DNA from: an uncultured Candidatus Saccharibacteria bacterium
GTDB lineage: Bacteria; Patescibacteriota; Minisyncoccia; Phycocordibacterales; CALRHW01
Length of the DNA: 64,000 nt
Reading direction: 5' to 3'
Assembly (NCBI GenBank): GCA_964407105.1
Contig: CAYOUG010000002.1
Span: forward strand, 11,041 to 75,040
The notes under the pieces were generated by a model. That model was not told the DNA's origin. It made no database searches and saw nothing but the letters and a program-made list of their open reading frames with translations. Below, piece by piece: positions 23,383 through 63,980 of the stretch. The stretch's first letter is position 1, and every line of letters begins with the position of its first letter. The position numbers and the translations under genes are program-made.

Positions 23383-23447
23383 TAAATAAGCAATAACAAA
23401 AAGCTCTTTGGTATTTTTCTCAACCCAACAAGAAAGGATTGTGCGAC

Positions 23448-24056
23448 ATGGAAACGCTCTCGAAAGTGATTCTGGTCGTCGCAAGTCTCATCTTGTTGTC
23501 GGCCCCCGTGGTGATGATCACAAAGATTCATCGCGGGCACGTTACTCTGAATAGAGTTACCTTTGGTGTTCGTAGTGGGGTGTCAATAATGAACCTCATT
23601 ACGTATTTCTTGGGTACTCAGAGTGACTACTTTAAGTCAGCAATCATGTTTACTTCAGCGCTTAGTCTGTCCACCATCTTTGGCTATTCCTTTTTTAGGG
23701 GGAAAGCAAAACTTCAGTGGTACGACGTTTGGGCGTTGGTGATCGTGGTTGTGGTGGTGATCAAGTGGAAAAGTAGCGGAGATGCGATGGTTGCCAATCT
23801 TTGGCTTCAGACCGCACTGTTACTCTCCTTTGTCCCGTCCATTTGGGGTGTTATCAATGGTGTGCTAAAGGATCAGCCTCTTGGTTGGTTCCTTGCGACG
23901 ATTGCTTACGCCCTCATGACTATTGGACTTTTACTGTCGGCAGATGCTCGGTGGCAAGAGTTCATTAATCCTTTGTGTGTTGGTTTTGTGGGCAACGGCG
24001 CTCTTGCGCTAGTGATAGTCCTCAAGAACCGACAGGTAATGCGACAGGTACCATAA
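23448..24056 (+). CDS. GC-rich hypothetical polytopic membrane protein (about 6 transmembrane helices)
   Basis: The product is 202 aa from METLSKV. GC is about 50%. No family was recognised. Confidence 0.5.
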   Translation: METLSKVILVVASLILLSAPVVMITKIHRGHVTLNRVTFGVRSGVSIMNLITYFLGTQSDYFKSAIMFTSALSLSTIFGYSFFRGKAKLQWYDVWALVIVVVVVIKWKSSGDAMVANLWLQTALLLSFVPSIWGVINGVLKDQPLGWFLATIAYALMTIGLLLSADARWQEFINPLCVGFVGNGALALVIVLKNRQVMRQVP

Positions 24057-24124
24057 CCCTGTCCAAACCCGCGCTAGACAAAAGTCGAAGCGCGGTTTTT
24101 CTTTTGCAAAATAACTGAGCGGTG

Positions 24125-61929: not shown

Positions 61930-63210
61930 ATGACAAAAATTACAAAAATTACTGCGCGAGAAGTTCTTGATTCAAGAGGTAATCCCACAATAGAAACAGA
62001 TGTATTTCTTTCTGATGGTTCTTTGGGTCGAGCAATGGTGCCGTCGGGTGCTTCTACTGGTGTTCATGAAGCACTAGAACTTCGTGATGGTGATACTGAC
62101 CGTTTTAATGGAATGGGAGTAAAAATGGCAGTTGAAAATGTAAACACAAAAATTGCTAAAATTTTAGAAGAAAAAGAGTGGGATCAGAGATCGCTAGATA
62201 ATGCGATGATTGTGTTTGATGGTACAAAGAACAAAAGTAACCTAGGTGCAAATGCTATTTTGAGTGTATCGCTTGCTTTTGCACACGCAACAGCAAAAAG
62301 TCTTAAAGAGCCTCTTTTTGCATATTTTAAAACAATCTCAAAAACAAAAGACGTGCGACTTCCGATGCCCATGATGAATATTTTAAATGGTGGAAAACAC
62401 GCCTCAGATTCTACTGATTTTCAAGAATTTATGATTGTGCCTGTGGGTGCAAAAAGTTTTTCTGAAGCACTTCGTTGGGGTGTTGAAGTTTTTCATGCAC
62501 TAAAAAAAATTATTTCATCTCGCGGACTTAATACTTATGTGGGTGATGAGGGTGGTTTTGCGCCGTCGCTTGCTACAAACGCTTCTGCTGTCGAAATTAT
62601 TATTGAAGCGATAGAAAAAGCTGGATATAAAAAAGGTGAGCAGATTGCGATAGCGATAGACGTTGCGTCAAGTGAATTTTACAAAGATGGTAAATATCAT
62701 TTAACAAAAGAAAACAAAATACTTTCAAGTGTTGAGATGGTTGAACTTTATACAGATTGGATTTCTAAATATCCAATTATATCTATTGAAGATGGTTTGG
62801 CTGAAGATGATTGGGAAGGATGGAAAATTATGACGGAAAAACTCGGAGATAAAATTCAAATTGTGGGAGATGATCTTTTTGTGACAAATATTGAAAGATT
62901 GCAAAAAGGAATTTCAGAAAAAGTAGGAAATGCTATTTTAATAAAATTAAATCAAATTGGAACAGTTTCTGAAACAATTGATGCTGTGAATATGGCGTAT
63001 AAATCTGGTTTTGCGGCAATTGTCTCGCATCGTTCTGGCGAGACAGAAGATACAACTATTGCAGATTTTGCGGTTGGTCTTGGTGTTGGGGAAATAAAAA
63101 CAGGCTCACTTTGTAGAAGCGAACGCATCGCAAAATACAACCAACTTCTTAGAATAGAAGAAATGTTAGGAGAAAATGCAGTATTTTCTAAAGAAAACTT
63201 GTTTGACTAA
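61930..63210 (+). CDS. eno: enolase
   Basis: [25 protein letters not shown]. It is 426 aa. Confidence 0.97.
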
Positions 63211-63278
63211 GCTTTTTTTAAGTAGATAATGTATAAGGCGTCCTTTCTTTTCTTTCTCTAGCATCTGAGGTGGTGCGC

Positions 63279-63980
63279 ATGAAACGAAGATTTGATAGAC
63301 GGGCTTTGATCATAGACGGAAGACCTGATTGCGGTAAATCAATGCAAGCACAACTTTTGGCTGAATATGCCAGAGATCGTGGTCTTGGGGTTGTGACGGT
63401 TTCGGTTGGAGAAATTGTTCGCAGGGTGGAAGCTGGTGATACAACAGATTCCCCCTGGGATGATTTTGTCAGAGATGTTGCTCCTGAAGTGAAAAAGGAG
63501 CTTCATCTTTGGGTTGCAGGAGAGCCCCTAACAGACAGGCTGGTAAAGGAAATTGCTGGCGGTCTGTTTGATCGGATTCCTCAAGATTTGGACCCCGATC
63601 TATTTATTCTTGACGGGTTTCCCAATTCGTCACCACAAGTACAAACGGCGTGTGTCATGCTTGCTAACGTCGGTGTGGCGATAAACTTGAATGCTTATGT
63701 GGTACGAATTTACGCTAGACGTGAAGACTGTGTCGCGTGTCGCCAAGAGCGTTTACGTACACAAAATTCGCATCACAGCAGTTTAGCTGAGGGGACTCAT
63801 CGCTGTCACGATGTGTACGATCGCAACCGGGATTCTATGTGGGATTCGCTCTCAAGGTTGGTTGCTCGTGCATATCGAGTTTCGAGTTCGGAAGAAGATT
63901 CTCAAGCTACACACAACAGAATTGTCTCATTTCTTCCACGTGGTCTGTTTAGGCCGCGTGCCGACATGATTGCAAGCTAG
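63279..63980 (+). CDS. GC-rich divergent adenylate-kinase-like P-loop protein
   Basis: GAGGTGG sits before the ATG at 63279. IIDGRPDCGKSMQAQLLAEYARDRGLGVVTVSVGEIVR resembles the AK motif G-PG-GKGTQA....S.GD.LR. DGFPNSSPQVQ resembles DGFPRT, and the Cys-rich lid is C..C...C/H. Confidence 0.5.
   Translation: MKRRFDRRALIIDGRPDCGKSMQAQLLAEYARDRGLGVVTVSVGEIVRRVEAGDTTDSPWDDFVRDVAPEVKKELHLWVAGEPLTDRLVKEIAGGLFDRIPQDLDPDLFILDGFPNSSPQVQTACVMLANVGVAINLNAYVVRIYARREDCVACRQERLRTQNSHHSSLAEGTHRCHDVYDRNRDSMWDSLSRLVARAYRVSSSEEDSQATHNRIVSFLPRGLFRPRADMIAS

Follow-up and report, generated by a model that had tools for sequence, protein, structure and literature searches.

Gene finders such as GeneMarkS-2 recognise a class of atypical genes (PMC6028130). 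In this work we examined GC-rich patches, that is, short segments richer in guanine plus cytosine (GC) than their surroundings and carrying one gene each, in a stretch of 64,000 nucleotides of contig CAYOUG010000002.1, which we call the window. The patches recur between 23439 and 63980, and an islet of two genes at 9715-12455, outside this range, is of the same class. The preliminary description of this DNA proposed that they had been repeatedly acquired from a higher-GC donor, for example the host of an episymbiont, or alternatively that they were a distinct class of recently evolved genes under different mutational pressure. We favour, with moderate confidence, the reading that they are accessory cassettes of the flexible genome of a Paceibacteria lineage, distinct from its core and exchanged within the clade.

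Acquired atypical genes and islets, as treated in the Lawrence-Ochman amelioration framework, are a close comparison. The patches are like them in being patchily present in close relatives, in encoding orphan or lineage-restricted proteins, in being inserted between conserved genes and in a codon usage that departs from the core beyond what amino-acid content explains (z-scores from 5.0 to 12.2 in the genes at 28092, 11166, 23448, 37468 and 9715). They also decay by frameshift and deletion: we counted one frameshift (37468), one deletion of 412 bp (in the strain L166) and one probable truncated remnant (31702-31803). However, the units consist of one gene of 0.3-0.7 kb each, lack integrases, repeats and att sites at tRNA genes, and are shifted towards GC, whereas acquired genes and ORFans of bacteria are usually richer in AT than the core. 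Furthermore, their GC is kept past synonymous saturation and no donor was found.

Bacterial ORFans are, reportedly after Daubin and Ochman, short, fast-evolving, AT-rich and possibly derived from phages. The patch genes are likewise short, taxonomically restricted, lacking an assigned function and very fast (18-27% identity within the family of the gene at 28969, as against 62-92% for the neighbouring genes), but they are GC-richer than their genome, carry strong Shine-Dalgarno (SD) sites in an otherwise SD-poor genome and evolve under purifying selection at the protein level, the ratio of nonsynonymous to synonymous change (dN/dS) being 0.10-0.31 in the measurable pairs.

The morons of lambdoid phages are autonomous single-gene transcription units of deviant GC, with their own promoter and terminator, lying between conserved phage genes. 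The patches share with them the single-gene format, the sharp compositional borders, a location between genes that are neighbours in the relatives and the variable content at recurrent positions, and some have a putative promoter or terminator of their own; they differ in lying on a cellular chromosome between housekeeping operons, with no phage genes nearby and with negative searches of PHROGs and IMG/VR. Streamlined free-living bacteria have flexible or hypervariable islands, such as the cell-envelope islands of Prochlorococcus and SAR11. Here too variable slots are flanked by core genes, envelope proteins are enriched, replacement within populations is rapid and recombination in the flanks is a plausible route, although the patches hold one gene per slot instead of tens of kb and have a separate translation-initiation signal. 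Integron gene cassettes, finally, are mobile units of a single open reading frame (ORF), of similar size and with diverse, mostly unassigned functions. The patches differ from these in being scattered, with putative promoters of their own, and in showing no array, no integrase among the annotated genes of the window and no attC-like imperfect inverted repeat, the inverted repeats at the patches being ordinary terminator hairpins.

Translation signals and composition of the patch genes

The window is a chromosome segment of a member of the Patescibacteria (class Paceibacteria) carrying housekeeping genes. Its backbone comprises GyrA, IF-2, ClpB, ThrRS, DnaE, RNase HII, a NusB-NUDIX fusion, RNase III and a short SMC protein, together with RNase R, TrmD, RpoB/C, DnaG, RpoD, an AddA-like helicase-nuclease, DsbA, UppP, HisRS, TruB, BipA and enolase. 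The mean GC is 38.5% (0.385; in segments of 500 bp the standard deviation is 0.040 and the 95th percentile 0.464), and the GC of third codon positions (GC3) in the core genes is 0.21-0.32, with a resident equilibrium of about 0.27. Relatives were collected by scanning the SMC protein against one genome per species, which gave 80 syntenic loci, all from metagenome-assembled genomes (MAGs) of Patescibacteria with the labels Paceibacteria, Zambryskibacteria or Taylorbacteria; in the closest of them the SMC protein is 72-73% identical. A second, independent set of 80 metagenome loci around HisRS was used as a replicate. Individual loci are cited by numbers with the prefix L and individual proteins with the prefix P. 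The patch genes at 23448, 28092 and 63279 also go under the positions 23439, 28047 and 63270, respectively.

All the patches listed in the preliminary description exist as ORFs, and the ribosome-binding sites attributed to them are borne out in a striking way. We looked for a match to AAGGAGGTGA within the region from -18 to -4 of the start. A match of at least 4 nt was found in 9 of the 9 patch genes and in 5 of the 43 backbone genes (Fisher p 5e-7), and one of at least 5 nt in 6 patch genes as against none of the 43 (p 4e-6), with patch sites such as AAGGAG, GGAGG and GAGGTG. The reverse holds for -10 hexamers close to the consensus that end 4-14 nt upstream of the ATG: they precede 9 of the 43 backbone genes, e.g. 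those of GyrA, AddA, HisRS, NusB and DsbA, and no patch gene. Examples of TATAAT-like boxes upstream of backbone genes are those of the genes at 2571, 50440, 56567, 30015 and 54137. This arrangement of start regions suggests that leaderless mRNAs may be the default for the core genes in this lineage.

The contrast extends to the relatives. With the window excluded, 27% of the GC-rich orphans have an SD match of at least 5 nt, as against 3.3% of the conserved genes (odds ratio 10.5, p 2e-9), and in the HisRS replicate the figures are 18-33% and 2.5%; over the conserved genes of about 120 related loci in the two sets, just 2.5-3.3% have a 5-nt match. No 16S rRNA sequence, with its anti-SD tail, occurs in any of the loci collected. 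Regarding the promoters and terminators that the patches were also said to possess, our consensus scans located promoter-like sites before the genes at 23448 (23354-23382) and 38935 (38861-38889), as well as terminator-like hairpins after 28571 (28615-28644, a strong one) and overlapping the end of 38935-39234 (39205-39241).

The GC content had been overstated, by 1-9 points: 48-53% was claimed, and the listed ORFs have 43.7-49.3%. In order to control for amino-acid content we redrew the codons of each gene from the codon usage of the backbone and expressed the total GC as a z-score. The islet genes reached 12.2 (9715-11007) and 6.2 (11166-12455), and the strong patches 9.1 (37468), 7.3 (23448) and 5.0 (28092). 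The excess of 53501 (3.4) and 28969 (3.1) is modest, and core genes come as high under the same control (ThrRS 4.4, DnaE 4.5, TrmD 4.2). No codon-level excess was seen in 63279 (2.0), 19985 (1.1) and 38935 (0.9), the GC of which is therefore explained by amino-acid content. The compositional difference thus disappears after the control in three items and clearly persists in five, the islet included. Nevertheless, the three patches without a codon-level excess carry SD sites as well, so the grouping made in the preliminary description is vindicated by a criterion other than the one it used.

In the strong set the third positions are nearly uniform (A.22, C.23, G.28, T.27), as against A.35, C.13, G.14 and T.39 in the backbone, and among the amino acids Thr, Val, Pro and Trp are up and Lys, Glu and Ile down. 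The dinucleotide signature separates the patches from the backbone with a delta* of 112 (null 44 +/- 14, null maximum 92), while the strong and weak sets are closer to each other (delta* 57). We treat this signature cautiously as an independent proof of foreign origin, because an uneven use of G and C across codon positions can alone alter the observed-to-expected ratios of GC and CG. A blind 300-bp scan, which leaves 28969 and 38935 undetected, flags stretches in the interior of GyrA (2834-3368) and of DnaE (25684-26279) as well. The borders of the patches are sharp: a gene of 27.7% GC (28630-28878) is sandwiched between two of them, and the neighbours are not raised (z-scores of -1.8 for RNase HII, -2.9 for 28630-28878, -2.4 for AddA and -3.4 for enolase). 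A regional GC-biased process of mutation or conversion is therefore unlikely.

These results bear on the reading that there is no single phenomenon, and that the list mixes chance fluctuations of GC, GC-rich amino-acid content, structured RNAs and artefacts of MAG assembly or binning. Such a mixture would accommodate the three items without a codon-level excess, the stretch 19960-20270, which is not GC-enriched, the interiors of GyrA and DnaE, which reach the same GC, and two elements (58728-59197 and 36795-36905) that resemble structured RNA and not genes. Moreover, two Logan contigs identical to the window both come from one run (SRR12487045), which may be the source sample, and were not counted as independent confirmation. 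We nevertheless regard this mixture as very improbable. It is at odds with an SD contrast that spans all nine genes, the weakly shifted ones included, and with the likeness of the strong and weak sets in dinucleotides; the pattern was also met again in some 160 loci that stem from many studies and assemblers, and two independent samples contain patch loci, namely that of 37468 (DRR274965) and the orthologue of 23448 (SRR14271343).

Turnover and origin of the patch genes

The patches had been said to interrupt conserved gene neighbourhoods, and actually their flanks are syntenic in the relatives whereas the patches are not. Searches by tblastn found no homologue of the genes at 23448, 28092, 28969, 37468 and 38935 (21.9-44.2 kb) in the 80 syntenic loci, where the neighbours are conserved, and no match of 53501 and 63279 in 80 loci. 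Synteny and conservation were found in part: 23448 has an orthologue in L082, and 28969 has remote orthologues in L002 and L003. In addition, we searched the six-frame translations of the 80 relatives with hidden Markov models of the 23448 pair and of the family of 28092 and 37468 (named A1 below), without a match; only 28969 could be linked, to L002 and L003.

In the same gaps the relatives have GC-rich single ORFs of their own, such as those of L003 at 1900-2604 (GC.54), 6600-7325 (.54), 9459-9914 (.50) and 12420-13187 (.59, GC3.76) and those of L040 at 6969-7772 (.56) and 14594-15358 (.60). Among the ORFs of at least 90 amino acids, 17.6% of the orphans and 0% of the widely conserved genes exceed the GC of their locus by more than 0.07. 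GC-high segments have a median of 558 bp and are present in 85 of the 95 loci, and around 13 of the 69 GC-rich ORFs of the relatives have a Pfam domain. The positions recur as well. Gaps longer than 400 bp are found in 33-60% of the relatives between ThrRS and DnaE, between the KH gene and TrmD, between RNase III and SMC and between SMC and RNase R, as against 3% between NusB and RNase III; the gap between the KH gene and TrmD measures 741 bp in the window and has a median of 165 bp in 27 relatives.

The units turn over while the neighbouring housekeeping genes are almost unchanged, which means that their history is decoupled from that of the core genome. By BLASTP, 28969 gives colinear matches to ORFs that occupy its slot, with the strand unchanged, in L002 (6519-7154, E 3e-5) and L003 (6600-7325, E 4e-4), these two matching each other at 3e-8, and the gene is absent from L004. 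The slot genes of L002 and L003 are 25% identical whereas their flanks are 85-98% identical. Conversely, the cassette shared by L009 and L013 is more alike (proportion of synonymous differences, pS, 0.45) than its flanks (0.66-0.77). Discordance in both directions would follow from an exchange of cassettes or alleles between lineages, for example by recombination in the conserved flanks. At the strain level, L166 (sample DRR274965), with 98.4% nucleotide identity across the KH gene region, lacks 412 bp of the window (37643-38054), which comprise the 5' two-thirds of the gene at 37468 and the region upstream of it. This deletion is a presence/absence polymorphism of the patch among strains.

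Whether the source lies outside the clade was addressed by homology searches. An exhaustive profile search brought together the small A1 family of 154-181 amino acids, to which 28092 and 37468 belong and whose members include P0008-P0011 and P0013. They share a transmembrane anchor at the N-terminus, a linker rich in Pro and the motif PxRVLxV..GVAxVE..DGxTFF..VVALxPGTYF...IDFxK. P0010 comes from the same MAG as L040 and has the mraZ operon on one side and a gene for an aminoacyl-tRNA synthetase on the other (GC.48, neighbours.45); P0013 is flanked by fpg and the gene of a PemK toxin (GC.56, neighbours.47; SD AAGGAG); and P0009 lies on a contig of 1.2 kb (GC.58, surroundings about.48-.51; SD AAGGAGG). 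Judged by these sequences the A1 family is Paceibacteria-specific and would seem to move between loci. Matches of the A1 profile to the giant repeat proteins P0006, P0007 and P0012 were set aside as uninformative, since they fall on Ig-like and DUF7743 repeat proteins. A structure model from two sequences was unusable (predicted local distance difference test, pLDDT, 40), and one from eight sequences gave a confident small beta core (pLDDT 86-93); against the PDB the latter found no significant fold match, the best being OB-like barrels at E 0.12, from which we draw no function.

Among 5.8 billion protein clusters, the A1 family and 63279 matched the window's own proteins only and 23448 a single orthologue (P0003), and the A1 profile had no homologue outside the lineage among 1.84 billion representatives. 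Pfam, PHROGs and NCBIfam were negative for the patch proteins save weak adenylate-kinase and Band_7 matches. These searches yielded the window's own proteins, one orthologue of Paceibacteria type and a small family, the located members of which lie in Paceibacteria-like contexts, and they give no support to a host as donor.

Repeated acquisition from a higher-GC cellular donor outside the clade, such as the host of an episymbiont, is therefore in our opinion improbable, though it has points in its favour. The patches are composed like genes of a genome of about 48-52% GC, most relatives do not have them, and their SD sites and putative -35/-10 boxes and terminators are canonical bacterial signals, unlike those of the core genes. 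Some GC-rich ORFs of the relatives are possible transfers (DapA, AroD, the MGS domain of PurH, a DDE transposase), and 63279, rich in Arg, Ala, Asp and Gly with a mildly raised GC3, resembles an old import from a GC-rich donor. Yet the homologues that such a donor should supply are missing beyond the lineage for A1, 23448 and 63279, the located family members sit among housekeeping genes of Paceibacteria type, and two patches are positional orthologues within the clade. Furthermore, patch GC rises with the background GC of the recipient instead of clustering at a single donor value.

According to the reading that we favour, each patch would be a self-contained single-gene expression unit, with an SD-bearing 5' leader and sometimes with a terminator-like hairpin and a promoter-like site that includes a -35 box, while the core genes would be translated without SD sites and many of them from apparently leaderless mRNAs. 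The units would occupy those few gaps between core operons that tolerate insertions, where they would be gained, swapped for unrelated or highly divergent versions, duplicated elsewhere and eroded by frameshift and deletion. Their composition would follow a clade-wide accessory pool with a GC3 near 0.5 and not the resident value of about 0.27, so in an AT-rich genome they appear as GC-rich patches. The strongly shifted units appear to encode small envelope proteins, either multi-pass membrane proteins or anchored, lipoprotein-like proteins with a small beta domain, from which we infer roles at the cell surface, just as we infer exchange among Paceibacteria as the source of the patches. A pool-like composition is seen when SD-bearing orphans are picked regardless of their GC: their GC3 is 0.47-0.59 over backgrounds of 0.27-0.61 (slope 0.43), and in the HisRS replicate the slope is 0.50, with orphans at 0.64 and the core at 0.70 where the genomes are richest in GC. 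A pool shared among hosts of differing GC would produce such a pull towards intermediate values, and this pull also explains why the deviation is one-sided in the AT-rich genome of the window.

Several observations weigh against exchange from such a pool. The ORFs of the relatives were called mechanically (longest ORF, greedy), and some of them are spurious or begin at the wrong start. In 38935, 63279 and 19985 the SD site is the sole common feature, without a codon-level shift. The promoter scan did no better than shuffled sequences (41 sites, 40.7 expected). No integrase, transposase, att-like repeat or flanking direct repeat was found in the search of four patches and among the annotated genes of the window, and no relative was found among the viral contigs of IMG/VR scanned with the A1 profile, 23448 and 11166. 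The repeat search, by which we sought mobile-element borders around these four patches, gave only repeats of chance size and terminator hairpins, and such borders were rejected.

Other difficulties concern persistence. P0003 of L082, the orthologue of 23448, is 71% identical and lies in the same ThrRS-to-DnaE slot, with flanking proteins 58-89% identical. The pS of the cassette is 0.605 and that of the flanks 0.67-0.72, i.e. saturated, and the GC3 values of 0.54 and 0.62 stand on backgrounds of about 0.30 and 0.36. Under a two-state model of AT/GC relaxation, so much synonymous change should leave no more than about 8-40% of an ancestral GC3 excess. A single old import that then ameliorated does not fit 23448, since it would need an ancestral GC3 of at least 0.9 and yet GC1 and GC2 are native-like. 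Similarly, syntenic orphan pairs at 25-50% identity hold a GC3 of 0.52-0.74 on backgrounds of 0.28-0.38. Amelioration with residence time was therefore not seen, and the persistent excess needs either repeated re-seeding or exchange, or selection on the individual genes. The simple exchange from a pool, by itself, leaves the pool's GC3 of about 0.5 unexplained. The GC of the A1 members, too, tracks the host (0.47-0.49 in the window, 0.48 in L163, 0.56-0.58 in L167 and L164), always above the local background, which leans to a host-relative offset and not to a fixed pool value.

The same observations favour the reading that these are native, vertically inherited and fast-evolving lineage-specific genes whose shifted composition is held gene by gene. 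The force could be selection linked to SD-led mRNAs with leaders, through their structure or stability or through the slow decoding of rare codons ending in G or C in genes for envelope proteins; it could also be a local process that favours GC, for example biased gene conversion at highly polymorphic loci. High GC3 past synonymous saturation is seen in the pairs 23448/L082, L012/L014, L002/L003 and L037/L046; the high GC3 of 23448 with nearly native GC1 and GC2 is the opposite of late amelioration from a very GC-rich donor; each located A1 member is GC-richer than its own genome; and pS is lower in the cassettes of 23448/L082 and L009/L013 than in their flanks, possibly by constraint on synonymous sites. 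The lack of both a donor and a mobility signature also fits. We consider native genes of this sort rather unlikely, however, because the borders are sharp at the level of the gene and the neighbours unaffected, which speaks against a regional process, because the same slots hold unrelated genes in different genomes and are empty in many relatives, and because A1 members are found at different loci. Moreover, the GC3 of SD-bearing orphans falls to below the background in GC-rich genomes, which a mixed pool predicts and a universal GC-favouring force does not. To our knowledge, there is no known mechanism that selects whole-gene GC3 in low-copy accessory genes.

Regarding the foreign origin that had been proposed for the patches, one half has survived: they are a class distinct in codon composition, dinucleotides, SD sites and turnover. 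The other half, a host or another higher-GC cellular donor, is unsupported, and the proposed alternative of a distinct class under different pressure fits the persistence data about as well as simple acquisition does.

Individual patch genes, small reading frames and structured spacers

The gene at 23448-24056 (plus strand), in the ThrRS-DnaE slot, encodes a membrane protein of 202 amino acids with five predicted transmembrane segments and without a match in Pfam, PHROGs or NCBIfam (GC 47.6%, GC1 0.505, GC2 0.379, GC3 0.54; SD AAGGA). The adjoining ThrRS (21529-23484), the codon-level GC of which is also elevated, as given above, is 75% identical to that of L009 and only 56-58% to those of L003 and L082, whereas DnaE is 84% (L003) and 81% (L082) identical and 67% to L009. 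These conflicting rankings suggest that thrS may have been replaced, via transfer or recombination, beside the variable slot.

The A1 gene at 28092-28571 (plus strand; GC 47.3%) encodes a small anchored or lipoprotein-like protein. Its ORF is open from 28002 and the gene caller chose 28047, but the SD site AAGGAG precedes the ATG at 28092. The other member in the window, at 37468-37964 (minus strand; GC 49.3%, GC3 0.60; SD AGGAG), is inserted, on the opposite strand, into the gap that separates the KH-domain gene from trmD. The two had been taken for paralogs, correctly, as they are 36% identical and conserve the C-terminal motif. In 37468 the ATG at 37964 starts a frame that encodes a membrane anchor (MDKTRAREWTWMYGPFLVICVIGFLFIPIGV...) resembling that of other A1 members, and this frame is offset by 1 nt from the main ORF (37468-37941). 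This copy is frameshifted, near 37860-37880, and probably decaying.

The very fast-evolving gene at 28969-29598 (minus strand; GC 43.7%; SD GGAG) has a modest GC shift and occupies the slot from RNase HII to rpmF/NusB. Next to it, an ORF on the minus strand (29611-29952) matches ORFs of the relatives, in which the ribosomal protein L32 (rpmF; MVVRMRHTRSHT...) is encoded on the plus strand directly upstream of nusB; the ORF is probably spurious and the window probably encodes rpmF too, at about 29700-29900 on the plus strand. The NusB protein itself (30015-30920) carries a C-terminal NUDIX hydrolase domain, and the fusion is 87-92% identical in the closest relatives.

The small Cys-rich gene at 38935-39234 (plus strand), between trmD and rpoB, has 99 codons, a GTG start and the SD site AAGGAG (GC 44.0%, GC3 0.33); it has no homologue in the 80 relatives and no family match in Pfam, PHROGs or NCBIfam, and both a promoter-like site and a terminator-like hairpin, as given above, accompany it. 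In the AddA-DsbA slot, 53501-53998 (minus strand; GC 46.2%, GC3 0.40; SD AAGG(GAG)) encodes a Cys/His-rich orphan of 165 amino acids with no homologue in the 80 metagenome loci, and the same slot of L088 holds an unrelated GC-rich ORF (13167-13844, GC 0.53). The gene at 63279-63980 (plus strand), between the enolase and SpoU methylase genes, encodes 233 amino acids (GC 47.7%, GC1 0.62, GC3 0.38, mostly an amino-acid effect; SD GAGGTG). It had been called adenylate-kinase-like, and its sequence is that of a divergent P-loop kinase-like protein and not of a bona fide Adk, to judge from Pfam matches below the cut-off (AAA_17; ADK with 18.4 bits vs 26.8) and a best NCBIfam adenylate-kinase match of 33.8 bits vs 187.

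The islet at 9715-12455 is the largest of the GC-rich segments. Its first gene (9715-11007, minus strand; GC 49.5%, GC3 0.555; SD GGAGG) encodes a protein for which six transmembrane segments are predicted and which has a linker rich in Thr and Pro. The product of the second (11166-12413, minus strand; GC 47.6%), with the ATG at 12413 and the SD site GGAG, is predicted to have two transmembrane segments and matches SPFH/Band_7 weakly (E 1e-4, below the cut-off). The islet lies 300 bp from four tRNA genes on the same strand (Leu, Lys, Leu, Cys; 12755-13701) and is without an integrase. tRNA genes are classical integration sites for islands.

A 33-codon ORF at 31702-31803 (minus strand), with AGGAG and ATG and one transmembrane segment, is probably the remnant of a variable gene of the RNase III-SMC slot; on the same strand of that slot, GC-rich genes with a single transmembrane segment are found in L002 (9287-9763), L003 (9459-9914) and L004 (6484-6822). 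Around 8.3 kb past the right end of the window in the source genome, a gene of L165 (9568-9975) encodes 135 amino acids with an N-terminal membrane anchor and has a GC of 48.5% and a GC3 of 0.54 among neighbours of 33-40% GC, so the pattern continues outside the window.

Three stretches had been described as non-coding and GC-enriched. The enrichment is real in 1000-1480 (44.9%) and 58740-59200 (43.8%), but not in 19960-20270 (40.5%), since 30% of the segments of that length are as high. As to coding, the spacer 58728-59197 is free of ORFs, whereas the start of a minus-strand S1-domain gene (565-804) and two small ORFs (1269-1394 and 19985-20185) were found for the others. The ORF at 1269-1394 (plus strand), inside 1000-1480, would encode 41 amino acids with one transmembrane segment; it has AGGAG and ATG, and TTGACA-17-TATTAT lies upstream, but it is without homology support. 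The stretch 1000-1480 folds moderately better than shuffled sequences (z about -3 to -3.5). The ORF at 19985-20185 (minus strand) would encode 66 amino acids from a GTG start after a 7-nt SD site, AAGGAGG. Between ClpB and ThrRS, where L082 (4450-5598) carries a gene for a YibE_F membrane protein, the window (19921-21449) has this small SD-led ORF, a ZIP transporter gene and a 94-codon ORF, which makes it a replaced slot.

The spacer 58728-59197, between the convergent truB and bipA (GC 43.2%), is unusually structured. It has no SD-led ORF of at least 30 codons, its minimum free energy lies far below that of shuffled sequences (z-scores of -6.2 for the minus and -3.6 for the plus strand), a motif of about 25 nt occurs in it twice (GUGGGUCGGCGGUAGCCAACCCGUC and GUGAGCCGGUGGUAGUCAACCCAUC), and at its 3' end there is a terminator-like hairpin on the plus strand. 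By these features it is a candidate structured RNA. GC-rich ORFs occupy the equivalent slot in L088 and L092.

Between rpsP and the KH gene we found a conserved GC-rich structured element of around 75-110 nt (36795-36905, plus strand), consisting of two hairpins within an A/T-rich closing stem; 14 pairs of its consensus fold show compensatory changes. It accounts for the GC-rich ORF 36669-37025 (minus strand), which is therefore spurious. Further copies are found in L003 (16163-16272, minus), L004 (about 12181-12290, minus), L082 (243-311, minus) and L066 (13778-13829, plus), the intergenic position and the strand differing among genomes, and the element may represent either a novel small RNA or a structured element that is mobile.

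Known RNA genes were considered as the cause of the GC-rich spacers and rejected: ARAGORN and Rfam at its gathering thresholds yield just the four tRNAs at 12755-13701 in the window, and permissive Rfam scans of 500-1600, 19850-20400, 58600-59300 and 36700-37000 gave nothing better than E 0.03.

Two possible expression regimes and the flexible genome of Patescibacteria

A broader and more tentative idea, which we put forward as possible only, is that Paceibacteria run two expression regimes: an AT-rich core that would be leaderless or SD-free, and an accessory pool, mostly of envelope genes, that would be leadered, SD-dependent and GC-shifted and whose composition would be actively maintained. 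The maintenance might come from selection tied to the mode of translation or from continual re-seeding out of an unrecognised extrachromosomal or viral reservoir that has a base composition of its own.

Atypical accessory genes as such are already known, and our results reveal no new molecular machine. What sets the patches apart is the GC-upward direction with its persistence and the clade-wide split between SD-bearing and leaderless genes; in full-text searching of the literature we found no description of GC-rich, SD-bearing orphan cassettes in Patescibacteria. It is unusual that accessory genes are GC-richer than the core and that the shift outlasts synonymous saturation, contrary to the standard picture of amelioration.

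Patescibacteria have tiny genomes, and their lineage-specific genes, mostly of unassigned function, are prime suspects for roles at the surface and in the interaction with hosts. An SD site together with a GC3 pulled to 0.5 in recurrent gaps is a class-wide marker of flexible genes with a fast turnover. This marker would help to find candidate interaction genes and would improve gene calling and start-site prediction in such MAGs. If the two regimes do exist, GC and SD status would identify, within these minimal genomes, a compartment that is separate in function and in evolution.

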